A stretch of DNA of 64,000 nucleotides. Origin: a virus. The notes under the pieces are model-generated. The model was not told the DNA's origin, made no database searches, and was given only the letters and a program-made list of their open reading frames with translations. Each line of letters starts with the position of its first letter. The stretch's first letter is position 1. The stretch covers positions 40,951-104,950 of the IMG/VR virus record IMGVR_UViG_3300042934_000426. One strand, given 5' to 3'. The translations under genes and the position numbers were made by a program. Below are positions 44,330 through 63,885 of this stretch, in pieces.

Positions 44330-45811
44330 TTAACGGTCTACTGCTTTCACTGTTCCGAAGCTAGTTGCCCCATAAGAAGGGTTGAATAGCTCACGGTTTG
44401 AGTTGATTCCTAGTTTACCGATGTTCTTGATAACTACGCAACGACGTGGGTTGTACACTTGAACCATACCGTAAAGTAGAATCATGAAACGCTCTGAAGC
44501 GGAAATTCTAGCAAGTGGAAGCTTCATTAATGGAGCTAATTGCTTGAATGTTAATACGTTTTCAGAATCGTTATCGATTAATACGGCTGTGTCCGTTCCA
44601 GGAATATCGAAGTTACGGTCAGCGATTGTTTGCGTTGCACCCGCCTTAGCGTCAGCCACTTCGAAGGCGAATAATGCTTTCGTAGGGTCTGAAGTTACGC
44701 CACGGTACACTTTGTAAGACTTCGCTACAGGGTCGCTTGTTACGCGATTGATAAGGATGTCTACACGTTGTCCAGCCGTTACCGCTACTGAGCCTAATGC
44801 CACAGGAGCAGATTCCCCAGCACTATTCTTCGCTGATACGAAGTAGAAGTATGTGCTAGCTGTATGCTTCGCTGTAGTGTCCGCTACCGCTACTAATTGA
44901 GAAGCTGGGAATGTTGGAATTCCTGGTGCTCCTTTTTGAGATTGAGCTTTCGGTGCGCCTTGTGGCTTCAAGAAAATGTTATTCACGAAGTTAATATTCG
45001 CTGTATTAGCTGAATATCCACGAACAGGTGCCCCTAATGTCATGCCGTCTGTCGAAGGCATAGCAATACGTTGACGAGCATATAATAACTTCGAGAAGTC
45101 CTTATGTGCTTGGTTTGTAATGTGAAGGTCTAAGTTCGCATTACCATAGTTGTCCGCTACGATGGTCGCTACGTCTTCCAACGTGTTTTCATCTAACGTT
45201 TCGCCACGCATATCAATAATATGTTGGGTTTCGTAAGGCTTGCCCTTAACGAAGTCTGTGATTTGTTTGATTACACCGTCAAACGCTAATGGGTCTACGC
45301 TTGAATCAGCGAAGTAAAGCATGCGCTCTAATTGCTGAAGCAACCATAATGTACCATTTTGAGATTCACGGGCAACAATGTCACCCACTGTGTTACGCAC
45401 TAGCGTAGCTGGGTGTGTTACTACTCTCGTAGTCCCTAGGAATTTCACCATTTGGGATTGACGAATGTAGTTGCTGTCCTCTTCGTTCGGTAAACCGCCT
45501 TCCATGAAGAAAGGAGAAGAATCGCCACCGAAGCTGTCTAATACGTTGAATTCTTCAACAGTATTGAACGCTTGTTTTTTGCCGATTGTCTTCCAAAACT
45601 TAATGTGTTGCTCGCCAGCCGTTACAATCTTTAAAGTCCCCTCTAAAGATTGTGGACGAAGAGCGGACATATCATTGTATGCACCGTTGCCATAAGCTTC
45701 TCCGTCTTGCCCTGTACCTAGGGCTTTGTTTAATTCTTCAAGGTTCTGCCAGTTATCGACACCAAAGCCTTGAACGTCTTCTTGACCACCATTTGGTAAA
45801 AAGTTACTCAT
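44330..45811 (-). CDS. Major capsid protein (SPO1/Twort-like)
   Basis: ELNKALGTG propeptide junction, ALRPQSLE, FDG, IID.RG..L, L.PLMKLPLA, and an internal Ig-like insertion. Confidence 0.92.
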   Translation of the reverse strand: MSNFLPNGGQEDVQGFGVDNWQNLEELNKALGTGQDGEAYGNGAYNDMSALRPQSLEGTLKIVTAGEQHIKFWKTIGKKQAFNTVEEFNVLDSFGGDSSPFFMEGGLPNEEDSNYIRQSQMVKFLGTTRVVTHPATLVRNTVGDIVARESQNGTLWLLQQLERMLYFADSSVDPLAFDGVIKQITDFVKGKPYETQHIIDMRGETLDENTLEDVATIVADNYGNANLDLHITNQAHKDFSKLLYARQRIAMPSTDGMTLGAPVRGYSANTANINFVNNIFLKPQGAPKAQSQKGAPGIPTFPASQLVAVADTTAKHTASTYFYFVSAKNSAGESAPVALGSVAVTAGQRVDILINRVTSDPVAKSYKVYRGVTSDPTKALFAFEVADAKAGATQTIADRNFDIPGTDTAVLIDNDSENVLTFKQLAPLMKLPLARISASERFMILLYGMVQVYNPRRCVVIKNIGKLGINSNRELFNPSYGATSFGTVKAVDR

Positions 45812-45840
45812 GCGTGTATACCCCCTTCTTGGATTGTCGG

Positions 45841-47454
45841 CTATAAGCCTAATTGTTGTCTAAGCGATTCAGGTAATCCTAGGCTCTGAAGCGGTGTGCC
45901 AGCTTCGAATCTAGCAATAGCAGAACCAGGGATTTCCCCTTTATCGAAGCTCTTCATCAGAATATTCCCGATTTGATTTCGATTTAAAGGTTGACCACCT
46001 GTTTCGATAGACTTCTGAAGTGTTTGCACTTCACGCCCGCTTACGACGCTTTTGCGTCCTACGGGACGGTTTAACACTTCGTTAAGTGACTTTTCAAGCG
46101 AATCAATGCGTTCCGCTTGCGCTTCGATAACCGCTAAGGACTTTTGCATAGCTTCACCGAAGGTTGCAAGTGACTTAACAATCGTGTTTTGTTGCTTCGT
46201 TACACTTCCCATCGACTTTTCGAATCCTTCTAAATAGAATCCGATTTCGTCTGTTAAAGAAGTGAGGAAGTCAGACACTTCGAACGCTTGACCGTGTTCT
46301 TCCGCTAATGACTTCGAAAGATTCGTGCGAAGGGATTTCTCGACTTCTTCGTCGTCCTCTCCGTCGCCTTCGTCCCCTTGGTCGTCATCGTCCTGGTCAC
46401 CTTCGTCACCTTGGTCGTCGTCGTCCTGGTTACCTTCGTCATCGTCCTCATTCATGGACTTTTCAAGGTCTTCGTCTTCTTCGTTTTCGAAGTCGTTTTC
46501 GTCCTCTTCATTGTCCATTTCAAGAGATTTTTGAAGCTCTTCTAAGTCTGTGTCTAACAAACTAGAAAGAGTATTCTTCACGTTTTCAGGCATACTAGCA
46601 CCTCCTATAAATTTTTGAATGGATTTCAATATTGGTAGCTTTTCAGCTATATACGAAGCGAAGTCTTCCGCTTCATCATAATCCAGCCCTTTTGATAACG
46701 CACAATGTAAGGCTTCGATTTCTATGTCGTCAGCATAGCTGGTTACGAATGATTTCTTTAGTAGCTCCTGTTTAACGAAGCTTCGAAATAGGTTTAACCA
46801 ATCGTCTTGCGGGTCAGGTGTTTTCACACCGCCTTCGAGCGACTGTGGCGTGACGGCATGAATGGCTCCTATGTCCATAGACTTGTCCATTTCAGGCATA
46901 TCAATCGTCAACTCATGGTGTTTAGCGAAGGACTTCGCTAGTTCAGCCCATGTAGTTGTATTGACAGGATTCATCGTTAAAACAACGTTCCGAAGGACAG
47001 ATTTCACAATCTTTCCTGTTTTACGGTCACGCTCTTTGACGTTTCCTTCGATTGACCAGCCCATTGTACGCTTCGTATTCGACTTTTGAAGGTCTTCGAT
47101 AGTCTTTACCGCTTGGCGGGTTAGTTCACGCTGGGCAAACAATCTCCCTTTTACGTGGATTCCGTTCACCGACTTTTTAATGGTCGGATGTTCGAAGCGT
47201 CCTACCTTCACTTCTAAAGGTTCACCGATAAACTGATTCGGGCTATTCCCATGCTCGTATTTTATCCAGCCTTTTTCTAAGAAGTAGGAGCAATCCATCC
47301 CTTCGGGGCTTATGCTATCATCCTCTTCGTCTGTATCATCCGAAGACATCACACCTTGTACGATGTAATCACCGTTTTCATCTACCTCGATAGACTTTTC
47401 GATGGGTACATAGAGATTATAGGTATCCGATAAGACGTTAAATGGTTCGCTCAT
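45841..47454 (-). CDS. Prohead protease fused to scaffold
   Basis: G.MS...D...D, IKYEH, GWSIEG and LT.NPVN..T protease motifs; acidic coiled-coil C-terminal half with many xxKS motifs. Confidence 0.88.
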   Translation of the reverse strand: MSEPFNVLSDTYNLYVPIEKSIEVDENGDYIVQGVMSSDDTDEEDDSISPEGMDCSYFLEKGWIKYEHGNSPNQFIGEPLEVKVGRFEHPTIKKSVNGIHVKGRLFAQRELTRQAVKTIEDLQKSNTKRTMGWSIEGNVKERDRKTGKIVKSVLRNVVLTMNPVNTTTWAELAKSFAKHHELTIDMPEMDKSMDIGAIHAVTPQSLEGGVKTPDPQDDWLNLFRSFVKQELLKKSFVTSYADDIEIEALHCALSKGLDYDEAEDFASYIAEKLPILKSIQKFIGGASMPENVKNTLSSLLDTDLEELQKSLEMDNEEDENDFENEEDEDLEKSMNEDDDEGNQDDDDQGDEGDQDDDDQGDEGDGEDDEEVEKSLRTNLSKSLAEEHGQAFEVSDFLTSLTDEIGFYLEGFEKSMGSVTKQQNTIVKSLATFGEAMQKSLAVIEAQAERIDSLEKSLNEVLNRPVGRKSVVSGREVQTLQKSIETGGQPLNRNQIGNILMKSFDKGEIPGSAIARFEAGTPLQSLGLPESLRQQLGL

Positions 47455-47477
47455 AATTTCACCTCACTTTATGGCTT

Positions 47478-47577
47478 CATATGAAACAAGGACAATCCAC
47501 AATACACCCCTGGCTAGGTTAGAGCTGGTAGAAACCTTGGCTAGAGTGGTTATTGCGGACTGTCCTTGTTTGATATG
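47478..47577 (-). promoter_or_regulatory. ~100-nt RNA hairpin in the 5' leader of the protease-capsid operon
   Basis: CAUAUCAAACAAGGACAGUCCGCAAUA pairs with UAUUGUGGAUUGUCCUUGUUUCAUAUG; mismatches resolve as G-U pairs on the minus strand. Confidence 0.7.
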
Positions 47578-47657
47578 GACTTTGTTGCCCTTTTTTATTC
47601 ACTTTTGATTACTTTTGTTCAACTACTTTCGAGTTTACCATTAACTTCCGAAGAGCG

Positions 47658-47873
47658 TCAACGGTCATTTTTCATATTTAAAACGTGCTTCGTCTTCGGG
47701 GGAGCTTCAGGCATAGACCCCAACTGTAACGGGACGGCTACCTTCGTTTTGCACGTTGGGCATAGGGCGTGTGCTTCTCCATTATGGAATAATACCATTC
47801 GGCTTCGTAGCTTGACGCCCCCATCAGTGGTAGAATCCATTAGTATCCTATTACAACTTGGGCAATGTATCAT
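47658..47873 (-). CDS. Zn-ribbon protein (Mu Com-like)
   Basis: IHCPSCNRIL...CPTCKT; upstream of the head operon. Confidence 0.65.
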   Translation of the reverse strand: MIHCPSCNRILMDSTTDGGVKLRSRMVLFHNGEAHALCPTCKTKVAVPLQLGSMPEAPPKTKHVLNMKNDR

Positions 47874-47921
47874 AAAGCTCCCCCTTTCCTGATTATAACA
47901 GTAATTTTCTGACTTCGGAAG

Positions 47922-48197
47922 TTAGTTTTTACCGATAGACTTCGCGACCCTTTCCAGGTGTTCGTTCGTGTAGTTTACCCTTTGACACGATTTTATCAAG
48001 TTTTTCCATACTTGTCGAAGCTTTTCTTTTCGCTCGTCCCCGTGTAGACCAGCGTCGGAAAGCTGGTTTTGGTAGCTTTGTAAGTTGTTGACGAAGTAGG
48101 TGTAACAACTTTGAGCTTCGGAAGTGCTTTTTATCTCTTCCTGAAAGGAATGTTCGTCGAAAAGAAAGCTCGTATTATTCACTGAATTTTCTGACAT
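47922..48197 (-). CDS. Hypothetical protein
   Basis: 91 aa; GGGGG SD; contains LIKS and VAKS motifs. Confidence 0.6.
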   Translation of the reverse strand: MSENSVNNTSFLFDEHSFQEEIKSTSEAQSCYTYFVNNLQSYQNQLSDAGLHGDERKEKLRQVWKNLIKSCQRVNYTNEHLERVAKSIGKN

Positions 48198-48477: not shown

Positions 48478-51400
48478 CTAAAGCATTATAACCAGTTTTA
48501 GGGACTTCGCTACCGCTTTCCCTTGGGTTGTTCCACTTCCGACTTTTAAATCACTTGTCTTCGGTGTTTTCACCTTCGGAAGTGTTTGGTTTTGCGCCCC
48601 TTTCGGCTTGGCACCCGCTTTACGCTTGGCGCTTCGTGAAAACCCTCTTCCTGTCATAGCACGGGCTGAAGCGGTATCACTCAACTTGTCTTGCTTCTCT
48701 AGTTGCTTCGTTGAATTCACCACATTCGAAATATTCTTCATTTTCGTATCCTGTGCGTCAAACATGAAGTCTTCGATGGTTCCAGGCATATGAAGCGATT
48801 CGACACGGGTTGTGTTGGCTCTGCCTACTGCCTTATGGGACTTCCAGCTATCCGAACGTCTGACACGGGCGGTAAACTGTGCCATTTTCTGTGGGTTCCA
48901 GTCTTGGTCGAAGTGTATCATCATGTGAGCGTTTCCGAAGTCAACGCCTTCTTTACCCGCTGGTGATACCGTCGTTGCCCATAGGTGACCTTGGTTGTTC
49001 ACGTAGTCCGCTCCGCTATCAGCCTTCGAACCACGGAAGCCTACCTTCGTATCTTCACGGTCTGTCGCTTCCCCTGTGAACTGTCCATGACCGAACTTGT
49101 CGCCTACCTTCGAAGCCCACTTATGCAATTCAGGATGTCCCGTTTCAGGGTGTGCCAGGTCTTTTAGTACTCCGTCCACAATGTCCGTTCCGAAAGTAGT
49201 GTAAGAAGACTTCACCACTAGCTTCGGCATGATTTCAGGCTTACCAGCCTTACGTCTTTCGTTGTTCTCATGAGCTACTTCATCCAGGTACTTCGATACA
49301 CGTTCCTTCAGGTAATCAGCCTTCGGGTTGTTGTGGTGAAGTGGAGCTAGAAGCTTTGGTGACCCGTCTTCGTTTTTCAGGTAACCGCCTTTGCCATCGC
49401 TTTCATAATAACGCTTGTGACCGTCCCCGTCTACTTCGAAAGGAATCGGCTCGCTCTTATCCTTTTTGTCCCCGCTTGTAGTCTGCTGTACTCCTGTGGC
49501 TTCGCTATCGAAGGCATTGGAACCAGGGACATACATTTTGCTCGCTAGTGGGGCGTTTAGGTACTTCTGAAGCTTCTGCATAGCGGTTAAATAGTTTTGG
49601 CTCTTCTTCCCGCTGGCATTATCGAAGCCCGTTGTAGAAGCTTGCTGAAGTTCCTGAAGCTTCGACTTCGGAAGGTACTTTTCCTGAAGCTGGCTGTACT
49701 CGTCGTACATTTTTTGCATGCTCGGCTTCATATTCGTCGGCTTGAACGTACGAACTTCGTACTCTTCCCCGCTCTTCGCTTTGGCTGTGACTGTGCCTTC
49801 GTCGAAGTCGGTGATACTATGCTTCGTTCCATAGTAGTCGTTGGTCGCATGGTCACGGCTTCGGTCTACTAAGTTACCTACGAAGTCATTTTGTGGGTTC
49901 GGATTGTCAGGCGTTCCACTCGCTCCTGATAAGTGTGGGAAGTGGATTTTCGAACCGTCGTTAAACTTTACATCTTCCCCGCCACGGAATTGAACGAAGT
50001 TGGCTAGAATGTCCCCTAGCTTACCCGCCTTCGCTGGGTTGACCCCGACGATTTTCCCGTTTCGGTCTTTAATCATATACTCATTGGTGAATTCCTGACG
50101 TGAGCCTAGCTCATGTTTCCCGCCTGAAATGGTGTCAATTAAGCTGTGAATCTCACGGGCGTCATTTTCCATTGGCGTTCCTGATAAGCCCCATACGTTT
50201 TTGAACTTGTCGGTCGCTTCGGCTAGAGACTTCCCGCGCTTCCCGCCCTGGTTCTTAAAGGCGTGTACTTCGTCAATCGTAATGTTATCGTACAATCCCG
50301 AAGCTGTTAACGCGTCTTTGTTTCTCATAAAGGTGTCATAGCTCATGATATGGAAGTCATGGTCAGAATCGTGGTGAGCGTCTAGGTTGTTTAGCAAGTC
50401 CTTCGTATGAACGACTTCGTGCTCTTTACCCGCTTGACCCCACAGTTTCTTACCGTCTTCACCCTTCGTATGACCGCTGAAAGACGAAGACCCCCCGATA
50501 AACGCACCCTTCATTGAAGTGTGGTCGGTGATTTCCTTACCCCAATCGGACATAATCCCCTTCGGAGCCACAATGAGCGTTTTCTTCGGCTTTTGTCCCT
50601 TAGATAATTGCTTCGCCTTATAATGGGCGTGAGCGACAACCCCTAGAATGGTCTTACCTGTTCCCATTCCGTGACCCGCAATACCACGCTTACGCTCGAC
50701 TAGGTGAGCTACCCCTTGTAGCTGTGTGCCGTACAATCCTTGCTTTTCATCCATAAGGAAGCTCTTCGGATTGAATTGAGCCTTGTAGTGGTCATCGAAG
50801 CTTCCGCGCTTCGTATTGACTTGTGACGGCTGGTAGTTTTCCTGGTAATATTTACGTCCTTCGGGACTGTCAATATCACGGAATACTCGGTCTTTACTTC
50901 GGAAGTAGTCGGCTAGGTGCTCCTGTGCGTCATGTGCCATCGAGATACCGCTACCTTCACGGGAAAGTATGTCCCGAAGTTCTTCGAACTTATTGGTGGA
51001 CACTTTCGCTATACCGTCCTTACTTACTGCAACCCCTTCGCTCGCTACTACGTCCCGAAGGTGTTCAGGAACGTGCAAGTCTAGGTCTTTGGTGTAACTC
51101 GACTTGAATTGCTTCAATAACCCTTTGCCCGCCTTCGAGCGTCCTAAGACCTTCTCTAAGCGTTTCATTTGGCTATCGTTTAATTCCAGGTCTTTCTTCA
51201 GGTTGCCTTCTTTATCGAAGGCGGTGGTGTTGATTTTGGCTTTCTTTAGCGCTTCGGCAAATAAGGTTTTCGCCTTTTCTGCTCTAGCTGTATCACGTTT
51301 GCCTTCCGAAGCTGGTTTGAATAGGTCATTCGTGTTCATACGGTGTGTACCCGTTTGACCCACTTTCAATACGGCATTACCGCTATTGGATAAGGTACGC

Positions 51401-54400
51401 CCTTTTTCCTTCGCTGGTTTCAGCTCATTCTTATTGAATAGCCCGACAAGCTGACCGTCGCTGTTGATAACCTGGAAAGCTCCGTTTTCCGTTTCCTGAG
51501 TAATCTTACCCTTTTTCCATGTGTTTCCGTCTTGGTACATGACCGCATTGCCTTGTTTCATTTTGACGTCATTCACATTGGTATGTTTTCGGTCGACTAA
51601 TTTCCCATTTTTGAATAAAGCTTTGATAGGTTCGCCTGTCGAAGGGTCTACTGCTCCCTTCGGAATATCGCGACTATCAATGTATCGATATCCCTTATAG
51701 GTTCCTGAAGCCACTACAGGAGCGCCTTTCCCATCGTATAGTAGCTCAATATGGTGCCCCAATGCGTCCCCAATGTGGACGTCACTTCCCGCATGAGCCG
51801 TTACCCAGGCACGATTACCGACGGCATTTTTCATGACTTCGTGAAGGTCTTCAGCCGTATTCACGTCTTTATGTTGCTTCAGAAGTCTAGCCATGATAGG
51901 GTCAGTGATTTTCCCGCTTCCATCCACTTCGATAACGTTTTGGGTGCCGTCTTCGTTTTCTTGGGCAAAGGTCTTACGTCCCGTCTTCGCGTCGTGGTCA
52001 ACTAGCTTGAAGTTCTTGTGCGTCATTTCGTCTTGCATACCTAGTCTTGTTTGGCTTCGGAAGCTCTTGGCTTCGTCTTCGGATAGCTCCTTGAACATCG
52101 GGCTTGTGCCGTCTTTGTTAGCGTCCGCTAGTAACTTTTCCGAAGAGTTGATATTCGTCCCCAGGTACTTGTTTAGCTTTGACCAGCTATGCGCGATATC
52201 GTCAGTTGCAAAGTGCTCTCCTGTTTCAGGGTCGAAGGCTTCGGAAATGTATGATGTATAGTTATTTTTCTTGTCGTCCATACGGTGAGCGACTTGAACA
52301 ACCATACTTTTCCCTGTCGTTGGGTTACCAATTTGGTAGTGCCCTTCAGGTATCATACGCTTCGTCATTTCTTCTCCCGCACGGGTCATTTCCTTTTGTC
52401 CGATTAGGCTAGCCAGCTCGTCCGTTGATAGGTCTTTCTTTGCCATTTCCTGTATGGTTGAACTCATACCATCTTGGCTTCGAAGTGCCATAGAGTTAGC
52501 GGTTTTCGAGATAGCTTCGAAGTCGGCTTTGTGCTCCTTAAAGAAGTTTTCAGCGTCCTTTTTGGCTGGCTTCGTAATGCCGTTTTCTTCTAGGTATTGC
52601 TTGTATGCTTCCACTTTGTCCTGAAGGAAATTGGCGACGTCTTCCGTTAGGATTTTATGCCCTACGAAGCGTTTTCGCTCTTCGTCACCCATTGAATCGT
52701 AGGCTTCTTTTTCTTCGTCGGATAAAGTGTGATACATGCCGATACCTTTATGGCTATGTTCCTTCGCTTTTTGCTTAATTCCGCTTACGTGGTCTTTCAG
52801 GTTCTCTAAGTCCTCTTCGAAGGCTTGAATTCCCATATCTAAGCGGTCTTTGTCTTCGTCCCCGTGGTTGAATTCCAGCTCGCCTGTTTCGTGGTTGATT
52901 TTCGCCCCGAATTTGTTCATGTGCATATCCTTCGCACGGGCGGTCTTCTTCGAATCGTCTTTAATCTTTGCCCACTCTTCATGAGCTTTGGCTTCCTTGT
53001 TCTTACGGTGCTCGGCTAGTTCTTCCTCTTCATGGTGGAATTCTAGTCCTTCTTCCTGGTCAGTGATACCATGGTTTTTCGCTTGTTCCTCTCGGTGGCT
53101 AGAGTTTTTAGAATCGTACTTGATTTCCCCATCACCTGTGATAAGGATTTTTTTACCGCCCCAGCTAATCCACGCTGACCCAGGATTCTTGACGAGAAGT
53201 TCTTCAGACCAGGTAAGTGCCCCTTGTTTCTGCTTTACCCGTTCCTGTTGCGTCTTCGCCATTCCCTGAATCTTAGCCTTGTTCTTTTTTGCGTATTCGC
53301 TTGCCTTTGCATTGGTGGAGCTATTCGAAGCCCCTTTATGGGCAAACATCGACTTTTGAAGCTCTTCGAATTCACCGAACGCCTTACGAAGCTCTTCGGA
53401 AGCTGGTAATGTGTGCTCGACGATTCGTGCACTTACCTGTCCTTCGTCATTAACGATATAGGCTCCGACGTACTCAGTAGGTGATAGAGATTTCTTAATA
53501 TCGAATAACGTTTCACCTGTTGCTACTCTTGTAAACTTCTGACGAAGGATACTCGCGTCAAGACCCCAGCTATTAAGGGACTTAATCAGGTTCAATTCGT
53601 ACCATGACTTCAAAATCATATTGAAGACGAAGCTCTTTAGCATAGCGAGCTGTTGAATGGCTGGATGATTGTTCGCATGAGCCTGAGCGATTTTCCCCAT
53701 AGCGCTTCGAACCCACTTGTCTACCCATTTTTCTCCATAGCTTGTTCCATGCACAGCATTATAGCGGTCAGCGATTTCCTGATTCGTTAAGTTCGCTTGG
53801 TTACGCTTTTCGGAAGGCTGGGAGAACTTATACGTCATCAGTTTAATTTCATCGTCACTTAATCCCATATCAGCCATAGCTTTCGGAAGTGTGCCTTCTA
53901 GTTCCTTCTGACGCTCTTTACGCTCATACACTTCTTCAGGGGAACGCCCTTCGTCCTGGATATTGCTTGTAATCGTTACGCTACCTTCTTCCGAAGCACG
54001 GTTCTTGTCGGCTGATACCGTCTTCTGCTGGCTTGCATAGGCACGAAGCTGACGAACACGTTCGGCTGGGTCGGTTTCTTGTTTGTTAGTCGCCACCCAC
54101 TCGCTTTTCTTATCATCCCAATAAGGAGCCTTGACGATTGGCGCTTCCTTGAATTCCTTCGAATTCTTCATAAGATGTGCGCCTAGTTCTTCGTCCGAAG
54201 GCGTACGTCCTAGCTCATGAGATAGCTGAGTGTGGGCGTTGTTCATATCCACATTTGCCATACGAACGGCATGCGGTAATGGGATATCGTTTAAGAAGTC
54301 ATACACGTCGTTTTTCAGCTTATCTTTGATACGTTGAGCTACATGTGCCCCCATATCGGCTGAAGGGTGCTGAGTGCCCGCCATGACGTTGTGGAGGGTT

Positions 54401-55386
54401 TCGAACATCGTCGCACGCGCTGACTGAAGCATATCACCATAGAAGCCTGTTTCCTGGTTGATGACGTTCTCGCTTCGGGTCGCTTTGTTCCCGATTCGGT
54501 TGATTTGCGAAGCTAGGTTCATACCTAGGGCACGACCACGCTTTAATACTAGGTGACGAGCAAACTTGTCATTCGCGTCTGTAATTTCTCCCGCTAACTT
54601 CTTAATGTCTTCGGCATTACGCTTTTCAGGTGGTAAGCTCATAAGCTTTTGTACCTTTGATGATTCCCACATTTCCGTAATGGAAGCATTATCCTTCGTA
54701 GCCGTTGCTTCGTTGAAATCCTGGACTTCTTGGTTCGCTTTATGGTTATCTTCGGTTTTGGTTAGGCGTTTAACAGGGTCAAGCTCTACGCGCTTAATCG
54801 CTGGTGCTTCTAAGTCACGCTTCTTTTTCGCTTGTCGAATCGCTTTGTTTTCAGCCGTCGCCTTCTTTTTCATATCCTTGACCTTTGCGGTTTGCGCTTT
54901 CTTCCGCTCTTTGGTTGTCTTGTTGACTTCCTTCATCACCTGTTTAACGGTAGGCTTTTTTGCTTCCGAAGCTGTTTTCGCCTTCTTTGCTGGTGCTTTC
55001 GTTGTCGGGTCAGCGATTACCTTTGCTTTACCTGTACCGTTTGCCTTCGTAGCGGTTTTGGTGGCTTTAGTTTTTTCTACCTTTGCCTTCGTTGCCTTCT
55101 TTTTCTTTTTGTCCGCTTTTTGGGCGTCCATGACCTTCTTATGGTCATTCGCATGAAGAACACTGTCCTTCGCTACTTTTGTGAGTTTTCCTTCGTCCGT
55201 CCGTACTTTGTAATGTCCGTCCCCGACTTCCTGGACTACCCCCGTTTTCCCTGTCTTCGTGACTACTCGGCTACCGCCTTTGACGGTGCTGAATTTACCG
55301 AACTTGTCCCGTGGGTGCATTTCTTCCCGCCAGCTTTTTTCAAGCTGAGAAGACAAGTCGATAAAAAGGAATGGTCTTGTTGCCAT
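48478..55386 (-). CDS. Giant polyvalent protein: sigma70-like domain plus SNF2 helicase
   Basis: N-terminal HPRD..GKF motif, KOW/SH3-like segment, Lys-rich linker, sigma regions 2-4-like segment; SNF2 motifs GMGTGKT, IDEVH, LSGTPMEN, EGVD, DWNP and QFTARVRR. Confidence 0.85.
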   Translation of the reverse strand: MATRPFLFIDLSSQLEKSWREEMHPRDKFGKFSTVKGGSRVVTKTGKTGVVQEVGDGHYKVRTDEGKLTKVAKDSVLHANDHKKVMDAQKADKKKKKATKAKVEKTKATKTATKANGTGKAKVIADPTTKAPAKKAKTASEAKKPTVKQVMKEVNKTTKERKKAQTAKVKDMKKKATAENKAIRQAKKKRDLEAPAIKRVELDPVKRLTKTEDNHKANQEVQDFNEATATKDNASITEMWESSKVQKLMSLPPEKRNAEDIKKLAGEITDANDKFARHLVLKRGRALGMNLASQINRIGNKATRSENVINQETGFYGDMLQSARATMFETLHNVMAGTQHPSADMGAHVAQRIKDKLKNDVYDFLNDIPLPHAVRMANVDMNNAHTQLSHELGRTPSDEELGAHLMKNSKEFKEAPIVKAPYWDDKKSEWVATNKQETDPAERVRQLRAYASQQKTVSADKNRASEEGSVTITSNIQDEGRSPEEVYERKERQKELEGTLPKAMADMGLSDDEIKLMTYKFSQPSEKRNQANLTNQEIADRYNAVHGTSYGEKWVDKWVRSAMGKIAQAHANNHPAIQQLAMLKSFVFNMILKSWYELNLIKSLNSWGLDASILRQKFTRVATGETLFDIKKSLSPTEYVGAYIVNDEGQVSARIVEHTLPASEELRKAFGEFEELQKSMFAHKGASNSSTNAKASEYAKKNKAKIQGMAKTQQERVKQKQGALTWSEELLVKNPGSAWISWGGKKILITGDGEIKYDSKNSSHREEQAKNHGITDQEEGLEFHHEEEELAEHRKNKEAKAHEEWAKIKDDSKKTARAKDMHMNKFGAKINHETGELEFNHGDEDKDRLDMGIQAFEEDLENLKDHVSGIKQKAKEHSHKGIGMYHTLSDEEKEAYDSMGDEERKRFVGHKILTEDVANFLQDKVEAYKQYLEENGITKPAKKDAENFFKEHKADFEAISKTANSMALRSQDGMSSTIQEMAKKDLSTDELASLIGQKEMTRAGEEMTKRMIPEGHYQIGNPTTGKSMVVQVAHRMDDKKNNYTSYISEAFDPETGEHFATDDIAHSWSKLNKYLGTNINSSEKLLADANKDGTSPMFKELSEDEAKSFRSQTRLGMQDEMTHKNFKLVDHDAKTGRKTFAQENEDGTQNVIEVDGSGKITDPIMARLLKQHKDVNTAEDLHEVMKNAVGNRAWVTAHAGSDVHIGDALGHHIELLYDGKGAPVVASGTYKGYRYIDSRDIPKGAVDPSTGEPIKALFKNGKLVDRKHTNVNDVKMKQGNAVMYQDGNTWKKGKITQETENGAFQVINSDGQLVGLFNKNELKPAKEKGRTLSNSGNAVLKVGQTGTHRMNTNDLFKPASEGKRDTARAEKAKTLFAEALKKAKINTTAFDKEGNLKKDLELNDSQMKRLEKVLGRSKAGKGLLKQFKSSYTKDLDLHVPEHLRDVVASEGVAVSKDGIAKVSTNKFEELRDILSREGSGISMAHDAQEHLADYFRSKDRVFRDIDSPEGRKYYQENYQPSQVNTKRGSFDDHYKAQFNPKSFLMDEKQGLYGTQLQGVAHLVERKRGIAGHGMGTGKTILGVVAHAHYKAKQLSKGQKPKKTLIVAPKGIMSDWGKEITDHTSMKGAFIGGSSSFSGHTKGEDGKKLWGQAGKEHEVVHTKDLLNNLDAHHDSDHDFHIMSYDTFMRNKDALTASGLYDNITIDEVHAFKNQGGKRGKSLAEATDKFKNVWGLSGTPMENDAREIHSLIDTISGGKHELGSRQEFTNEYMIKDRNGKIVGVNPAKAGKLGDILANFVQFRGGEDVKFNDGSKIHFPHLSGASGTPDNPNPQNDFVGNLVDRSRDHATNDYYGTKHSITDFDEGTVTAKAKSGEEYEVRTFKPTNMKPSMQKMYDEYSQLQEKYLPKSKLQELQQASTTGFDNASGKKSQNYLTAMQKLQKYLNAPLASKMYVPGSNAFDSEATGVQQTTSGDKKDKSEPIPFEVDGDGHKRYYESDGKGGYLKNEDGSPKLLAPLHHNNPKADYLKERVSKYLDEVAHENNERRKAGKPEIMPKLVVKSSYTTFGTDIVDGVLKDLAHPETGHPELHKWASKVGDKFGHGQFTGEATDREDTKVGFRGSKADSGADYVNNQGHLWATTVSPAGKEGVDFGNAHMMIHFDQDWNPQKMAQFTARVRRSDSWKSHKAVGRANTTRVESLHMPGTIEDFMFDAQDTKMKNISNVVNSTKQLEKQDKLSDTASARAMTGRGFSRSAKRKAGAKPKGAQNQTLPKVKTPKTSDLKVGSGTTQGKAVAKSLKLVIML

Positions 55387-55467: not shown

Positions 55468-58400
55468 CTACTTGGCTATCGGAATTACGAGCATACCTTC
55501 AGAAGAAGTTTTTCCCTTCACGACGATTTCACCGTCCACGGCTCTTATGTGGTCAGGCTTCGGAAGAGCGATAACATACGCCTGGCTTTCATTGTACAGG
55601 TCATAGTTACTCCTAGCGTAACCTTGTGCCTGGCTGTATAGGGTCGAGAAGCACGTATAAGAATTGTTCTTGTCTGCGTCGTTTCCTTTACCCTTCGATT
55701 CAACGAAGCCGTTCTTTCGGATAAAGTCTAGCTCCTTTTGACCAATGCCACGGTAGATATAGTTTTCGTCGTCAGCGAATACCTCTTTGCCCAGGGCTTC
55801 CCTTCCGATTCGTCGAAGTTCGTCTTCGCTGAGTAACCTTCCGTGCTTCTTTTCATGGTGCTGGTGATGGTGCGTATGGGCTGGGTAGTGAAATCCCTTC
55901 CATACCTCCTGATACGCTTCGATTGCCCGCTGGCGTTCGATTTCATTCGGTGTATTCATGACCACACACGGAACATGGGTAAAGTCACACAGGTGACTAG
56001 CTTCGTAGCGGTGTTGACCGTCGTGTATATCATAATTGAAGCCTATCACAATCGGTTCTAGATTTTCACCCGCTACCATACGTTCGACGTTCTCCTGTAC
56101 CTTATCCCAATTCGTTGCCTTTTCCGTTTGGTAAACCGTTTTTAATCGGTTGAGTGGGATATAAATGACTTCCGAAGGATTCGGTACGTTATAAGCGCTT
56201 CGGCTACCCCTGAATTGGGCGTTTAGGTTGGTACTGTGTATACTACCTAATAACTCTTCTAGGCTCACCCGACGCATGTTTCCAGGTACGTCGAAGCTCT
56301 TCAGCAATTCCATTTCCAGGGCTTTCTTCAGGGCTTTGTTCTTCGAAATGTAGCTCACTAGGGCTTCCATGTGCTTGTGCATGTGGGCGCGTTCTTTTCC
56401 TAGTGGGAAAGGTGCTCCTAGGGCTTTGACCGCCCCTTCTTCTGTTCCATGCACCAGGTAGTTGTTATAGCGTTTGTCCTTCTTCAATTTATCCTGTACG
56501 TAGCTTTCGAAGACCCTGGCGAAGACTTCGGCTGGTTGTGACCAATAGTGTGCCCCGTTCTGTTGCTTGCCTGGCTGGGTCATTTCCATACGGCTCATGT
56601 ACTCACTTTTGCCTGTTTGGATTTCAATATGACCTCTGTACGGCTCACCGCTGTACTTCCCGCCATTTTGCTTTAGTTGAAGCTCTTTTGCCAGGTAGTG
56701 CGGTAGCTCGTTTAGTTCCCGTTTCCGCTTTTGTTCATACTTCTTAATCTCTTTTTCCCTAGCTGTGTCATTGCTATAGTAGGAGCTCGTCTTCACCCGA
56801 CTAATAGCGGTGTCATACTGGTTGTTAATCTTACTCGACCAATGCTGGTACACTTCTTCAGGCTTCATGCCACTACCGACTTGTCTACGCATTTCAGGGT
56901 AGTAGCGTCCGATACTCTTCGCTTCGGAATCGAGTAGGAGTTGGACTGTCCCGCCTGGCTCTCCTGGTGTCGGCTTCTCAATCGCTTCCATGACGTTGTT
57001 AAAAAGCTCTTTTAGCTTCGGGTCATGGTTGCCCATGCTTCCTTCCGAAGCGTGACCCAGGGATTCTTGTCCCCCATTGCTGTACTGATACATAATGTTA
57101 TCTAAGGCATGACCCCATTCGTGAGCTAGTGAACCCGCTCCCCCGTACTTCGTCATATTAATAACCTTACGGTCAGGTTCATAGTGAGCTAGTGAACCAC
57201 CCTTCCCTCTCGCTCCGAAGGCAATGGCTAGTCGTCCGTTAAGAGAAATATCCTTCGGGTCGATTCCCAGCACGTCGGATAGGTCGTTAAAGGCTTCGGC
57301 ACAGCGCTGAAGGTGGTACTTCCCGCTAGAATCATTGACCCAATTTCCGAACTCGACGCCACGCACCCCGAAGTCTTTCATCAGGTCTTCAGGCTTCATG
57401 ACCTTCGTTGGTTTCCCGCCTGTACGAAGGTGCTCGGCTTCGGCTTTGCGCTCCCATACCTTATTTTCTTCGCCTTTTTTCTTCGGTGCCTTTTTAGCTT
57501 GCGGGGTCAGGTACTTGTCCCATCCTTCTTTTGTGTTCTTGTTCACGGTCTGAATCGTTCGGTCACGGCTGTCCCAATCGGTAAAGAAGTTATTGAATTT
57601 CTCCCCCAGGGCTTCGAAGTTGAACGCTTGCTTATCCTTCATACCCTGAATAAAGCGGTCTTCGTATTCCTTTTTGAGCTTTTTGGCTTGCTCGATTTCT
57701 TCGGGCTTCAGTGGGAAACGCTCATACTGTGAAATACCGTTTGCGCGCTTCGTTTGATATTCAATCGTTCGTGCCCAGCTTGAAAGGTTCTTTGTGCTGG
57801 TATTGCGTCCGTATTCGGACAGTTCCCGAATGGCGTTACGCATATTTTCCCAGGTCTTAATCCCCGCTATTTGTCGATGAAACTTCGTCATAGCCACTAA
57901 GTAGGCTTTACGGGTTTCAGGTGTGGACGGGTCAGGCTTCGGAGCCATTCTATCGAAGAGCAATTTCTTCATGATAGCTGTTGGAAGCTCCGTCCCGTTG
58001 GCATGCTCGTCTTCGAAGCTGAATCCTGGTAGTAGGTTCGCCTTCGTGACCATCTTTTCCGCAATCGCCCCGCTCATTTTTTCTAACTCGTCTAGGCTCG
58101 TTGCGGTTGGCTTCGCCTTGAATCCAGCGATAAATTCGTCCTTACGTGCTCCCCCTACCTTGTCGCCTACGTCATACGCTAGTTCTCGATTCTTTTGGGC
58201 TTCGTGACGTGTATCTTTGGCGTTCTTTTTACCAGCGGTTTTGGGTTTGGTAGCTCCACCTTCGGAAGTGGCTTTGGGTTTTCCTGAAACAGGCTTTCCA
58301 GCTCCGCTTGACTTAGTTTCGGTGGTTGCTCCTTTGCTAGTACTTTTTGGTTTAGTTGTTTTAGTAGCACGTTTACCCGCTCCTTCTGTTTTCGTAGGTT

Positions 58401-58797
58401 TCGAAGTGGTTTTCTTAGGTGCTTTTGTGGTCTTCGGTTCTTTTACTTCCGAAGCTTGCTTGCTAGTCTTTTTTGGCTCTTTTCCTTTGCTTGCTCCTGA
58501 AGCTTTTTTAGGTTCGGCTTTGCCTTTACTTTTACCAGCATTTTTCTTCTCTCCCTTTTTGGGCTTCGAAGTTTTATCGTGATTTTCTTGGTGCTCTTTT
58601 AACTGTGCCTTCGTTGCCTTTTTTGCTCCCGAAGCTCCTGGGATAGCCCCCGCTAGCACTTTCCCATCTTTAATGTAAATATGGTGACCTTTAACGGTTT
58701 TCCACTCACCGCCAGGCGGTAGCTCTTTATGAACCGCCTTGGCTTGTGTCCGTGTAATCGCTTTGATTAGGTCAAATTCTCCTGGTTTGAGTATCAT
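55468..58797 (-). CDS. Polyvalent protein: LPD5/LPD1-like zincin, ParB-like and ART-like domains
   Basis: DVGDKVGGARKD; GVEFGNW...AHEWGHALD...EVFARVFESYV; PIVI...IHDGQHRYEA; YRGIG...CFST..YA. Confidence 0.8.
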   Translation of the reverse strand: MILKPGEFDLIKAITRTQAKAVHKELPPGGEWKTVKGHHIYIKDGKVLAGAIPGASGAKKATKAQLKEHQENHDKTSKPKKGEKKNAGKSKGKAEPKKASGASKGKEPKKTSKQASEVKEPKTTKAPKKTTSKPTKTEGAGKRATKTTKPKSTSKGATTETKSSGAGKPVSGKPKATSEGGATKPKTAGKKNAKDTRHEAQKNRELAYDVGDKVGGARKDEFIAGFKAKPTATSLDELEKMSGAIAEKMVTKANLLPGFSFEDEHANGTELPTAIMKKLLFDRMAPKPDPSTPETRKAYLVAMTKFHRQIAGIKTWENMRNAIRELSEYGRNTSTKNLSSWARTIEYQTKRANGISQYERFPLKPEEIEQAKKLKKEYEDRFIQGMKDKQAFNFEALGEKFNNFFTDWDSRDRTIQTVNKNTKEGWDKYLTPQAKKAPKKKGEENKVWERKAEAEHLRTGGKPTKVMKPEDLMKDFGVRGVEFGNWVNDSSGKYHLQRCAEAFNDLSDVLGIDPKDISLNGRLAIAFGARGKGGSLAHYEPDRKVINMTKYGGAGSLAHEWGHALDNIMYQYSNGGQESLGHASEGSMGNHDPKLKELFNNVMEAIEKPTPGEPGGTVQLLLDSEAKSIGRYYPEMRRQVGSGMKPEEVYQHWSSKINNQYDTAISRVKTSSYYSNDTAREKEIKKYEQKRKRELNELPHYLAKELQLKQNGGKYSGEPYRGHIEIQTGKSEYMSRMEMTQPGKQQNGAHYWSQPAEVFARVFESYVQDKLKKDKRYNNYLVHGTEEGAVKALGAPFPLGKERAHMHKHMEALVSYISKNKALKKALEMELLKSFDVPGNMRRVSLEELLGSIHSTNLNAQFRGSRSAYNVPNPSEVIYIPLNRLKTVYQTEKATNWDKVQENVERMVAGENLEPIVIGFNYDIHDGQHRYEASHLCDFTHVPCVVMNTPNEIERQRAIEAYQEVWKGFHYPAHTHHHQHHEKKHGRLLSEDELRRIGREALGKEVFADDENYIYRGIGQKELDFIRKNGFVESKGKGNDADKNNSYTCFSTLYSQAQGYARSNYDLYNESQAYVIALPKPDHIRAVDGEIVVKGKTSSEGMLVIPIAK

Positions 58798-60215
58798 CGT
58801 GTAAACCCCCTCATGAACGCCTGAACGTCCCCTAGTGACTTTTCTAGAGCGTCCCTGTCGTCAATCGCTCCTACGTATAAGTGTAAGCCTTCGTCGTCGA
58901 TATGGTGATGGAGTAGGGTGTGACCTACATTTGACTTCCGAAGTGCTTTAATCGCTTTTAAAAGTAACGCCTTTAACAGGTCTAGCTTGCCTTGTTCGTT
59001 GTAATCAATACCCTTACCGTGGTCTTTCACCTGTATAATGCTAGGGTCATAGACACCTATTTGCCAGCCTTCTTCCTTGAATTCGTCGAGCTTATCGACG
59101 ACGGCTTTGTACCCATTCTTCTTGGCGAATATTTCGTAAGGAGATACCTTCATAGGCTTCACGTCACGTCCCCATAGCTTCTTTAGTTCTTCTGCTTGTT
59201 CGTTGAAGGTGCTATAGTTTTGCTCAGGTGACCAACTACTTGTGTCGATACCTTTCAAATGCTTTAGAACGAAGCCCATCATCTTTTCCATTGTGCCTTC
59301 GTTGTAGTGGTCATTAAAGTCCTCAAGGATATCTTGTAGTTCCTTTGGTCGCCCGTTTGTGCAATCCAAAAGGTGCTTCTTCGGTACAAGTGCCTTTACG
59401 ACCGCTGGGGCTTTCTTTTCGGTGAAGAAATCCACAATTTCCTTCGTGTCATTTCCTTTGCTCCGTCCGTCCGTGTACTTACTTGGTACAGGTAGTCCCT
59501 TTGCTTGTCGGTCAGCTATCCACTTTTGACGGTCGTCGTGGTCTTTGTGGTCGAAGGCTGGACTTTTGAAATAGGCACAGTTTCCGAAGTCATCCCATGA
59601 CCCCTGTAGTTTATGGATATAGTCGAAACCGTTCGCTAAGATATTGTCCAGTCGGGCTAGCTTCGTGCCGTGGAACATTTCGACGGTTTCTTCGGAAGTT
59701 TGCTCTTCCTTTGGCTTTGCTGGTTTGGCTTGCCTTTTTAGTTTTGTATCAATAACTAGCTTCGGTTCTTTCTTCGAAGGTGCTTTTGCTCCTGTCTCCG
59801 TTGCTTTCGGTTTGGCGGTGGTGCTAGGTTTACTTCCACTAGCGGGTTTAGGTTTTGGGCTACTTGATACCCCTGAAACAGTCTTTTTAGGCTTTTTAGA
59901 AATCTCACTCTTTTCAGCTCCTTTGGTTTTCGAAGCTGGTGTTTTCGCTTTGGTGTTTTTCTTCGCTTCTTTATCGATGTGTGCCTGGTGTGCTTTTAGG
60001 TGTTCCTTCGTCGCCTTCTTAGGCTTCGTCACCCCAGGAATACTACCCGCTAACACTTTGCCGTCCTTTATGTAGACGTGGTGACCTTTAATCGTACGCC
60101 ACTCGCCCCCGTCGGGTAGGTCTTTATGGACGCTTTTGGCTTGGCTTCGGGTAATAGATTTGAATAAATCCAGGTCGTCATTGACTACCTGGATTCCGTG
60201 TAGGTTTACTAGCAT
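58794..60215 (-). CDS. Polyvalent protein with an ADP-ribosyltransferase-like (PARP/HYx-type) domain
   Basis: MFHGT...NILANGF...FGNCAYF; N-terminal module shared with the downstream gene. Confidence 0.7.
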   Translation of the reverse strand: MLVNLHGIQVVNDDLDLFKSITRSQAKSVHKDLPDGGEWRTIKGHHVYIKDGKVLAGSIPGVTKPKKATKEHLKAHQAHIDKEAKKNTKAKTPASKTKGAEKSEISKKPKKTVSGVSSSPKPKPASGSKPSTTAKPKATETGAKAPSKKEPKLVIDTKLKRQAKPAKPKEEQTSEETVEMFHGTKLARLDNILANGFDYIHKLQGSWDDFGNCAYFKSPAFDHKDHDDRQKWIADRQAKGLPVPSKYTDGRSKGNDTKEIVDFFTEKKAPAVVKALVPKKHLLDCTNGRPKELQDILEDFNDHYNEGTMEKMMGFVLKHLKGIDTSSWSPEQNYSTFNEQAEELKKLWGRDVKPMKVSPYEIFAKKNGYKAVVDKLDEFKEEGWQIGVYDPSIIQVKDHGKGIDYNEQGKLDLLKALLLKAIKALRKSNVGHTLLHHHIDDEGLHLYVGAIDDRDALEKSLGDVQAFMRGFTR

Positions 60216-60244
60216 GGTTGAACCCCCTTATGCTTCGGAAGGCT

Positions 60245-60505: not shown

Positions 60506-60750
60506 GGTCTTACCAGCTCCTTTTTATGCTTAACTACCAGGCGAAGTCGTTGCAAATGGTCAAATGCGTTCAGTTCGTTGTACATGGTCGGTATGTAGTC
60601 GAACCAATTCCCGCCCTGGGCTTTTAGTTGCTCGTTAGCTTCGTCCCTCATAGCCGTTACTTCGTTTTCCCATTGATAGTCTTTCATACCGATAATTTGC
60701 TCTTCGGTGTACTCTCGTACAATTTCAATCCTGATTTTTTTGTCTTCCAC
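60502..60750 (-). CDS. Hypothetical protein
   Basis: 82 aa, GTG start; AGGAGCTGG SD. Confidence 0.6.
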   Translation of the reverse strand: MEDKKIRIEIVREYTEEQIIGMKDYQWENEVTAMRDEANEQLKAQGGNWFDYIPTMYNELNAFDHLQRLRLVVKHKKELVRP

Positions 60751-60772
60751 GTTCCCCAGCTCCTTCGTGAAT

Positions 60773-62083: not shown

Positions 62084-63885
62084 GTGACCTCAATCCCCTT
62101 GCTTCGGAAGTCGTCTTCAATGGACTTCTTAATCTTGTCCTTCTTTTCCTTTTGGGCTTTCTGCTCGGCTGTCATTTTGGCTAGTTTTTCCTGGTGTCCA
62201 TGGTCGAGCTTCTTCACTTCCAGGTTTTGCTTATGGGTGTTTACAAGTTTGTTGCGGTCGTGTAGCTGGTCGACGCCTTTTTGTTGCATAGCGTGTTCAT
62301 GCTGTTTATCCATGATTTCAAGCTGGCGTTTGTGCGCGTCTTCTTCGCCTTCTTTGCCTCTTTCGTGTTCCACGTCGCCCTGGGCTTGTGCTTGCTGTTG
62401 CTGGTTTTCTTGCTGTTCTGCATTTATATCAGCCATGAATACTTGAATGAGCTGGGCGTTGGCTGGTGCATTAGCCCACTTCGGAAGTTCCCCGCCATTC
62501 TCCTTCTTGATTTCTTCGATATCCACGTCGTTTTCTTTCCACAGCATAGCCACCGTTTTCACACCCGCTTCGAGCTGGGTTTTCTGACGTTCTAGCTTTT
62601 TGTCTTCGTCCTCTTCGTCTACCCCTATCCATTCGAAGACGTATTCGTCGTCAATCAGGTCGACGACTTCGCTGTTAAATGTATCTGATAGGAAGTTCAT
62701 GAGCGGGATAAAGCCTTTATCCTTTGACCCTTCCATTTTGGCTTCGGTGTTATCTGAAGCGCTCATAGAATTACTTGACGTCCAACTCTTGAATCCGACT
62801 TCGTTCGGGTCAATTTGGTAGACCGCACAGGCTATGTTGAAGAGGAATTCTAGGAATTCGTTGAATTCCATATCTCGGTTGCTGTTTTTGAATGGGGTAA
62901 ACTTAAACCCTTGCCCCTCTTCAAGTGCCATAACGGGTACTGCCCATTTGCCAGGTGCTCCCGTGGTTAGGCTCTTCCAATGACGCTTGAACCCTTCTAG
63001 GTGCTTATCCTGGTATTTCCCTACGACTTCTAACACCCCTTGTGGTAAGTGGCTATGGCTGAAGTAGCTCGTATTATAGCGTACCCCATTCATAATGCCT
63101 GTGACGATTTCAATCAGGGTTTCCAGCTCGCTCATTCCGAAGTCCACCATATCTAGGTCGGTGCGTGGGTTTCGAATCGCATAGGCTAATTCGTCTTCGG
63201 TGAATTCCGCTACCGTACGACCGTTGACTTTTTGGACGTAGGCGATATTGTCGCCTCCCGCTTTGACCCCGCCTTTGGTTTCAGGGATATACACAGGCAC
63301 TTCGTAGTCTAGTTCTCCTGTCGGGTTGTTTAGTACTAGCTCAATCGTTGAGCCGTCTACTGCCCACAATTCAGCGACTTCGTTTTTGACGCTGGCTACC
63401 TTCTCGAAGGCTAGTACGTCTAGTGTGAGGGAATCATAAACAGTCTTCCGAAGGAAGGTGTTAAAATTGTCCTTCCGAACTTTGTTCTTGACCGCTCCTG
63501 TTTTGAGGAAAAATTCTTCGATTTCCATAGCCCGCTTCTTTTGGGCGTCGGTCATTTTGGCTTCGCGGTCTTTTAATCGAATACGGAAGCCCATATCCCC
63601 GTCGAAGCGCGGTCTTCGAGCGTAACGTGCCACCTGGTTGAGGCGGGTGTTAATGATAGCGCTCACGGCTGGTACTGTTGCCATTCTTCGAAGGGTTGTG
63701 TAAGGAATAGCCGTCGGCTTCGAACGAACGCCCAGGAAGCCTCCCATGTTATTAAATGGGTCAATAATGGCACTCTTCGGCTCTTGTGCTTTTTGCATAT
63801 CGTCTTTCATGGCTTTATAAAGCGCTTCGGATTCCCCAGGAAGCGGGGCTCTGTTGGCGTTCCATATGTGTAAGATTTCGCTCAT
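62068..63885 (-). CDS. Portal protein
   Basis: AIINTR.NQV, DG.TI, RNPR.D, G.SE.E, F.H...P.G.L, DMEF..FL and IDP.E.G motifs of SPO1/Twort-like portals. Confidence 0.92.
   Translation of the reverse strand: MSEILHIWNANRAPLPGESEALYKAMKDDMQKAQEPKSAIIDPFNNMGGFLGVRSKPTAIPYTTLRRMATVPAVSAIINTRLNQVARYARRPRFDGDMGFRIRLKDREAKMTDAQKKRAMEIEEFFLKTGAVKNKVRKDNFNTFLRKTVYDSLTLDVLAFEKVASVKNEVAELWAVDGSTIELVLNNPTGELDYEVPVYIPETKGGVKAGGDNIAYVQKVNGRTVAEFTEDELAYAIRNPRTDLDMVDFGMSELETLIEIVTGIMNGVRYNTSYFSHSHLPQGVLEVVGKYQDKHLEGFKRHWKSLTTGAPGKWAVPVMALEEGQGFKFTPFKNSNRDMEFNEFLEFLFNIACAVYQIDPNEVGFKSWTSSNSMSASDNTEAKMEGSKDKGFIPLMNFLSDTFNSEVVDLIDDEYVFEWIGVDEEDEDKKLERQKTQLEAGVKTVAMLWKENDVDIEEIKKENGGELPKWANAPANAQLIQVFMADINAEQQENQQQQAQAQGDVEHERGKEGEEDAHKRQLEIMDKQHEHAMQQKGVDQLHDRNKLVNTHKQNLEVKKLDHGHQEKLAKMTAEQKAQKEKKDKIKKSIEDDFRSKGIEVTWDEY

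Follow-up and report, generated by a model that had tools for sequence, protein, structure and literature searches.

The 64-kb window analysed here (IMG/VR record IMGVR_UViG_3300042934_000426; coordinates below are window positions) is the right-hand part of the 104,950-bp genome of an uncultured phage, and its minus strand, from 63885 down to 44330, carries what gene calls and family searches identify as the head-assembly block of a phage with an SPO1/Twort-type capsid. Three lysine-rich proteins within this block, of 473, 1109 and 2302 residues (Lys 12.1-15.2%) and hereafter termed the cargo proteins, are probably packed into the prohead by means of short N-terminal leaders, cut there by the prohead protease at those leaders and at joints between domains, and ejected with the DNA. 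The element that the protease would cut is acidic-hydrophobic-x-K↓S/A/G-hydrophobic, with cleavage after the lysine (↓). The cargo is tied to the head protease because its sites score highly against a matrix of scaffold sites, its leaders and joint lysines are conserved, its joints are portable between proteins, its leaders are predicted to be disordered and the same arrangement recurs in a second lineage.

Two forms of the element were counted, a loose one ([LIVM]-x-K-[SA]) and a strict one ([LIVM]-x-K-S-[LIVMFW]), with expectations taken from shuffles within each protein that kept its composition. All of the instances listed in the original prediction, which had proposed this processing system from the DNA sequence alone, were found in place, and the recurrence that it had put at about 15 in the protease-scaffold fusion amounted to 17 loose motifs versus 1.2 expected (z 14.8). 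All 17 are K-S, 16 have a hydrophobic residue at P2', and K-S alone is enriched in this protein, no other residue being enriched at P1 or P1'. The expected concentration in the head block was likewise borne out: the strict motif occurs 36 times in the genome versus 9.5 expected, with 16 of these in the protease-scaffold, and 10 times in the three cargo proteins versus 1.24 expected (0 of 5000 shuffles reaching 10; Poisson p 8e-7), whereas beyond the head block, over 26,367 residues, it has 7 occurrences with 7.6 expected. The loose motif was found 6 times in the 473-residue protein (1.8 expected, z 3.3) and 13 times in the 2302-residue protein (7.8 expected, z 1.9), and near chance in the portal protein (3 versus 1.4). 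A site within the first 30 residues was present in 7/11 head-block proteins versus 14/96 others (Fisher p 9e-4).

That this element, which the original prediction had likened to the KS site of Twort-like capsid propeptides, is the cutting rule of the HK97/S78-type head protease lineage is indicated by a comparison of sequences with PDB chain lengths, from which the rule was derived; literature searches found no stated specificity for a Herelleviridae protease. The HK97 capsid protein reads TFNK103↓S104LG, and its mature form begins at Ser104. The capsid protein of phage 812 reads DVVK24↓S25FQTGYG, and its solved mature chain (9row) has 439 residues, i.e. 463 - 24. The window's capsid protein, which shares approximately 37% identity with capsid proteins from phages of Bacillus and Bacteroides, aligns over its full length to SPO1 Gp6.1 (PDB 9vel) and to the phage 812 protein, such that EELNK↓ALGTG is matched with DALNK↓ALEAG of the SPO1 type and lies within about 3 residues of K24↓S25; EELNK↓AL is kept by the capsid proteins of all relatives. 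Scaffolds are known to be degraded, and the separate scaffolds of phage 812 and the SPO1 type carry 9 and 11 K-S sites.

By homology, the protease encoded in the window, which is joined to a scaffold in one protein, is probably a diverged serine protease of the HK97/S78 type. It matches Herelleviridae proteases by tblastn at E 1e-18 to 1e-10, and those of phage 812 and the SPO1 type pass the Peptidase_S78 model (PF04586) at 26.7 and 25.3 bits (cut-off 21). A sequence search retrieved no PDB relative, and H68, H89 and S134 (in GWSIEG), candidates for the catalytic His and Ser, are invariant in eight relatives. In the same eight protease-scaffold relatives (51-78% identity) the K-S columns are kept even through a poorly conserved acidic linker, and lysine conservation is 0.87 in the motif versus 0.62 elsewhere (p 0.002). 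Because the family rule matches and the K-S columns are conserved, the protease is predicted, on good grounds of homology, to trim about 29 residues off the capsid protein and to cut its own scaffold at about 17 sites.

A scoring matrix trained solely on the scaffold sites of the eight relatives gave the consensus acidic, acidic/Thr, Leu, x, Lys↓Ser, hydrophobic, and its top three non-scaffold scores in the whole proteome were K833 of the 1109-residue protein, K678 of the 2302-residue protein and K459 of the 473-residue protein. K833↓S, at 16.1, is the highest score outside the scaffold in the genome, and the leader and C-terminal sites of the 473-residue protein score 9.0 and 14.3. All three proteins share a front end consisting of a leader, a small beta module and a long basic disordered tract, followed by the enzymes, and each has a site at residues 10-20, giving leaders of 19, 12 and 17 residues in the 473-, 1109- and 2302-residue proteins, respectively. 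The AlphaFold2 models leave these leaders disordered (predicted local distance difference test, pLDDT, 24-38); residues 1-21 and 86-174 of the 473-residue protein and residues 1-25 and the linker 669-684 of the 2302-residue protein fall below 50. The placing of the motif at cargo termini and domain junctions that the original prediction had described is thus recovered as conserved N-terminal leaders and module joints in homologues. The 2302-residue family keeps the leader LYIDLxK↓[SAG] in 30/30 homologues, as well as K17, K602, K632, K668 and K678 (K584 in 28/30), and over its first 760 residues motif lysines are 0.90 conserved versus 0.52 for 94 others (p 7e-5). In the 1109-residue family (39 homologues, 38-66% identity) 33 proteins open with a leader fitting M-[IL]-[IL]-D-[LI]-N-x-x-[DE]-L-[IV]-K↓[SAG] and all 39 retain a site in the joint, K825-A826 being invariant, and lysine conservation is 0.70 in the motif versus 0.47 elsewhere (p 0.04). 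K459 is invariant in six homologues of the 473-residue protein.

The joints also appear to be portable. Within fused polyproteins of relatives, YIDLxK↓S/A stands at the points where modules are swapped (G002, G004, P0006, P0009), directly before the module with which the 473- and 1109-residue proteins start: a 2488-residue protein of G002 contains GLYIDLKK↓SITRSEAK and GLYIDLQK↓A, G004 has IPIEQLQK↓SITRAEAK, and the 1877-residue P0006 joins a 473-like to a 1109-like protein through TLYIDLEK↓AITRTQAK, so that the clade contains both split and fused versions. An ADP-ribosyltransferase (ART)-like module is joined directly to a ParB module at EVNK↓SLGY in P0041, and gene boundaries can coincide with the predicted bond, as in G003/G005, where a gene starts M-AITRAQA, the predicted new N-terminus, and in P0040, which ends at DLQKS. 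The leaders precede two unrelated elements, the ITR...PPGG beta module and a tag, HPRD-x2-G-K/R-F. In its fuller form ([FW]-x-E-x-x-H-P-R-D-x-x-G-K/R-F) this tag is found in many homologues (P0010-P0104) at N-termini, in interiors and near C-termini, and hydrophobic-x-K-[SAG] precedes it by a fixed 6-8 residues in 52/56 non-redundant occurrences; no description of it was found in the polyvalent-protein paper (PMC5512222). The arrangement recurs in a distant lineage of high GC (guanine plus cytosine) content: its polyvalent proteins start with MIFILRK↓S and ILLLK↓A, its protease and scaffold are separate, the scaffold carrying 7-8 sites where 0.8 are expected, and its capsid protein contains EELNK↓A.

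With regard to the enzymes themselves, the domains named in the original prediction were recovered to differing degrees, the evidence for the ART being weak. The zincin, LPD1 and ParB-like domains of the 1109-residue protein and the SNF2/Helicase_C domains of the 2302-residue protein are solidly assigned (Table 1). Residues ~236-606 of the latter are predicted to have a sigma-70 fold spanning regions 2-4: all 50 of the Foldseek PDB matches listed are sigma factors, at E ~1e-4 (best 8e-5), probability 1.0 and 340-430 aligned columns, and Pfam Sigma70_r3 scores 20.9 bits in the window versus a cut-off of 25.3 and is on record for five homologues. The 473-residue protein is a tentative ART. Pfam PARP matches at E 0.009, below cut-off, and its VIA-align list consists mostly of ADP-ribosyltransferases, with Z at most 4.6 on a low-confidence model (mean pLDDT 54); H182-G-T184, Y215 and E382, candidates for the ART H-Y-E triad, are invariant in six homologues. 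A search of the family profile against PDB sequences gave nothing significant, and Foldseek with the whole model returned only meaningless rows because of the model's low confidence.

The probable sequence of events is that the leaders, of 12-19 residues, bring the cargo into the prohead's scaffold core, the role played by capsid-targeting sequences in T4, and that the protease, while destroying the scaffold, trims the leaders and cuts exposed joints. The 473-residue protein would be cut at K19 and K459; the 1109-residue protein at K12 and K825/K833, freeing the ParB-like module; and the 2302-residue protein at K17, K668/K678 and possibly K2294, so that its sigma-like N-terminal part would come away from the SNF2 part. 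In the capsid, the basic disordered tracts probably run along the DNA and hold the pieces there; on infection the pieces probably exit together with it and act on the transcription, DNA and defences of the host.

Several observations weigh against this account. Packaging, cleavage and injection of the cargo are each deduced from sequence, and the protease domain in the window falls short of every Pfam model. The overall count in the 1109-residue protein is near chance (4 versus 3.3), as are K-A sites as a class in the genome, which leaves the K-A half of the originally proposed motif unsupported as a class; K833 is kept in only 41% of homologues, the site shifting within the joint. Whereas the AlphaFold2 models matched the original prediction at the leaders and at the 669-684 linker, they did not at four of the sites that it had placed after the sigma-like domain: K584, K593, K602 and K632 lie in helices at the end of the sigma-like fold (pLDDT ~81-86) and may be inaccessible, or conserved for other, structural reasons. 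A leader is not always needed, since one cargo protein of G003/G005 is without it; the K-[SAG] element and the HPRD tag may form one larger signal for docking rather than cutting; leaders and tag could serve as docking signals that are never cut; and the zincin of the 1109-residue protein is itself of the type proposed as a processing enzyme in PMC5512222. A complex prediction for the protease domain with the 2302-residue protein's leader scored 0.00, which yields no verdict and is evidence neither way.

Docking is accordingly the subject of one rival explanation, in which the leaders, the YIDLxK element and the HPRD tag are docking peptides onto the scaffold, the portal or the MuF-like protein, with the cargo left uncut or with only the capsid protein and scaffold being cut. 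The fixed spacing to the tag could make the element part of a larger linear motif, several conserved sites lie within folded helices, and the virion RNA polymerase of phage N4, a polyvalent protein, is packaged unprocessed (PMC5512222); however, the element is the same as the proven capsid maturation sites of the protease family, is hyper-abundant in scaffolds, also stands before modules that have no HPRD tag, such as the ITR/PPGG module, and marks the exact beginning or end of some genes, and this explanation is considered unlikely. It is quite improbable that the three proteins are late-expressed intracellular enzymes that are not packaged, the motif excess then being due to local composition and to the common descent of shuffled modules. 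Their placement between the portal/MuF-like and protease/capsid genes in every relative, the conservation of leaders before unrelated modules, the chance-level strict motif in the remaining ~26,000 residues and an LPD1 polyvalent architecture typical of predicted virion cargo (PMC5512222) all speak against it, although related sequences do inflate the conservation counts and a second SNF2-type helicase (597 residues, 11727-13520, PHROG 62 E 3.5e-109) in the replication region implies an intracellular use of SNF2 activity as well and makes the head-block SNF2 an extra copy.

The zincin offers a further route, in which this metallopeptidase makes the cuts before or after injection and the prohead protease is uninvolved. 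Iyer et al. 2017 (PMC5512222) credit such domains with processing polyvalent proteins, the P1 DdrB-like ones included, and HEWGH is invariant in the 39 homologues. Yet the same motif is present in the scaffolds and capsids of HK97, phage 812 and the SPO1 type, whose head blocks, as examined, have no such zincin; there is no independent sign of K-S specificity in the zincin, and the 473- and 2302-residue proteins would have to be cut in trans, which leaves this explanation very improbable.

Cleavage of packaged cargo by the head protease is as a concept already known: internal proteins and Alt of T4 carry targeting propeptides of 10-19 residues that are removed by gp21, Alt being trimmed at both ends (PMC9026906), and the head protease of SPN3US processes ejection proteins (PMC10052503). 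The system proposed for the window would work like that of T4 without being a member of the T4 family. As with IPI-III and Alt, short leaders ending in the head-protease motif stand on otherwise unrelated cargo; as with Alt, an ART-like cargo protein (473 residues) has sites at both ends; and the scaffold would be cut many times and basic cargo held in the head. In contrast to T4, the protease is of the HK97/S78 type and not gp21, the motif is hydrophobic-x-K-S/A and not L/I-x-E, and the cargo is giant and multi-domain with internal joints, whereas T4 cargo is small and single-domain. HK97 (gp4 and the delta domain of gp5) and the Herelleviridae phages 812 and SPO1 probably share the protease lineage and the K-S rule, and the latter two also have a homologous capsid protein and motif-rich scaffolds; in the window, protease and scaffold are fused, and the head blocks examined for these phages lack large cargo genes in the interval from portal to protease. 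The phages phiKZ and SPN3US, whose cleavage motif ends in Glu, differ in being jumbo phages with cargo encoded as many separate genes rather than as polyproteins. Like the proposed system, they have many head-internal proteins that enter the host, transcription machinery included, and that are cut at a simple motif, by a prohead protease which the papers liken to that of T4 (PMC10052503, PMC7411985).

The cargo also resembles the polyvalent proteins of phages and conjugative elements, among them the P1 DarB/DdrB class (Iyer, Burroughs, Anand, de Souza, Aravind 2017). LPD1, zincin, ParB-like, SNF2 and ART-like modules stand in chains, several unrelated effector domains occurring in one chain in the 1109-residue protein, together with the LPD-type domain, and in the 2302-residue protein, the genes reside beside portal, MuF-like and other head genes, and modules are shuffled between relatives. 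The difference is that PMC5512222 credits embedded metallopeptidases, and contains 'prohead' in its reference list only, whereas the joints described here bear the prohead protease motif together with a conserved leader. The literature searched did not connect polyvalent joints and a conserved leader with the cutting rule of HK97-type proteases.

Many phages encode polyvalent proteins, whose separation the literature searched credits to their own embedded peptidases. If the head protease is what processes them and a short leader is what loads them, module boundaries and mature effectors would become predictable from sequence alone and the leader would be usable as a cargo-loading tag in phages with HK97-type proteases, comparable to the T4 targeting sequence. 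Alongside the N4 virion RNA polymerase and T4 Alt, a sigma-like factor carried in the virion would then add another way to take over the host at once. It is conceivable, although doubtful, that S78-protease phages share a general, evolvable loading grammar (leader, acidic-hydrophobic-x-K-S/A joint and often an HPRD-x2-G-K/R-F tag) that loads any module placed behind it into the prohead and frees it there, and that here a complete virion-borne sigma-like factor, released at K17 and K668/K678, retargets host RNA polymerase as the DNA enters. The relatives G001-G003 have genomes of 94-102 kb with terminal repeats; compared with Herelleviridae genomes (125-170 kb; PMC7414437), these and the window's genome fall short by 20-40%, with homologous capsid proteins of similar length. 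If capsid size is also similar, there could, speculatively, be spare room for a large protein load.

Table 1. Features of the head-assembly block, in order along the minus strand (window coordinates).
Feature	Coordinates	Strand	Residues	Basis or remark
Portal protein, 605 residues	62068-63885	-		Pfam Phage_portal E 3e-15; PHROG portal families
Portal N-terminal site LYK-A	63811-63822	-		
Portal C-terminal site IKK-S	62122-62133	-		
Probable MuF-like minor head protein, 436 residues	60773-62083	-		ESM Atlas neighbours
Two small open reading frames, 82 and 86 residues	60245-60750	-		between MuF-like and cargo genes
473-residue cargo protein	58794-60215	-		
473: leader, ending LFK-S	60159-60215	-	1-19	
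473: small beta module			20-60	
473: Lys-rich disordered tract			86-174	
473: ART-like core (tentative)	59046-59684	-	178-390	
473: C-terminal site LEK-S	58836-58847	-		
1109-residue cargo protein	55468-58797	-		
1109: leader, ending LIK-A	58762-58797	-	1-12	
1109: beta module			13-75	
1109: Lys-rich tract			76-190	
1109: zincin HEWGH	57109-57123	-		
1109: LPD1	56341-56565	-		Pfam E 7e-18
1109: joint LKK-A...LLK-S	56296-56331	-		
1109: ParB-like nuclease	55891-56208	-		PHROG E 1.5e-28
2302-residue cargo protein	48478-55386	-		
2302: leader, ending LEK-S	55336-55386	-	1-17	
2302: HPRD-x2-G-K-F tag	55297-55335	-	within 18-30	
2302: beta barrel			33-78	
2302: Lys-rich tract			79-235	
2302: sigma70-like region (predicted)	53569-54681	-	236-606	
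2302: K-S cluster	53578-53643	-	582-603	
2302: linker sites LRK-A and LQK-S	53350-53391	-		
2302: SNF2	50062-50724	-		Pfam E 2e-21
2302: Helicase_C	48856-48963	-		
2302: C-terminal VAK-S	48502-48513	-		
91-residue open reading frame	47922-48197	-		between cargo genes and protease; VAK↓S five residues from C-terminus
Prohead protease-scaffold fusion, 537 residues	45841-47454	-		
Protease part	46645-47454	-	1-270	PHROG 1028 head maturation protease E 8e-42
Scaffold part	45844-46557	-	300-537	PHROG scaffolding protein E 1e-11
Major capsid protein, SPO1/Twort type, 493 residues	44330-45811	-		PHROG 752 E 3e-81
Capsid site LNK-A	45722-45733	-		predicted propeptide 1-29

The genes of the block follow one another in the order given in Table 1, the stop of the 473-residue gene overlapping the start of the 1109-residue gene at 58794-58797. 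At the portal, the sites named in the original prediction are at chance by count in the genome, while the N-terminal one is conserved, relatives G001-G004 keeping 'EELLK↓A' about 25 residues in. The 436-residue protein is probably a MuF-like minor head protein: it had no match in Pfam (Phage_Mu_F PF04233, E up to 1) or NCBIfam and matched Phage_Mu_F clusters in the ESM Atlas by features (0.95) and by structure (template modelling score ~0.5). Its LLK-A, which had been counted among the motif instances, is a single site and at chance (1 versus 1.2). Family searches gave no match for the 82- and 86-residue open reading frames, the latter with LAK↓S at residue 29, nor, Pfam and PHROG included, for that of 91 residues.

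At its C-terminus (48478-48513) the 2302-residue protein reads VAK↓SLKLVIM, and a distant polyvalent protein (L036:10001-14983) ends TLAK↓ALELV; a short tail after a cut site may be common to both C-termini. Some relatives have the orthologue of the 2302-residue protein split inside the SNF2 region by extra open reading frames (L001:6149-6790; L004:5945-9712), one of which, of 213 residues, has an N-terminus that is LAGLIDADG-like in look and could be a homing-endonuclease or intron-type insertion. The splits (L001, L004/L018) were not taken as a sign of cut sites, as the extra frames look like insertions within the SNF2 region and not at the motif. Outside the head block, a lysine-rich protein of 255 residues (18165-18932) with no family assignment has 6 loose motifs versus 1.1 expected (z 4.9), mostly K-A, with one strong K147↓S site; it is not counted in the proposed system.

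The palindrome CTTCSGAAG, a bias that the original prediction had wanted controlled for, was also examined as a source of the motif. This origin was rejected: read in frame, the palindrome yields only L-R/P-K, which touches at most 4 loose sites and no strong ones. The window has 83 copies of it where 0.68 are expected, and the 105-kb genome has 127, with 587 bp as the median spacing; they fall between genes as well as in each of the three reading frames (e.g. 1735-1743, 63445-63453). The palindrome looks like a DNA-level signal. Its density in relatives ranges from 26-29 per ~20 kb in L001, L019 and L030 to 1 per 21 kb in L004/L018.

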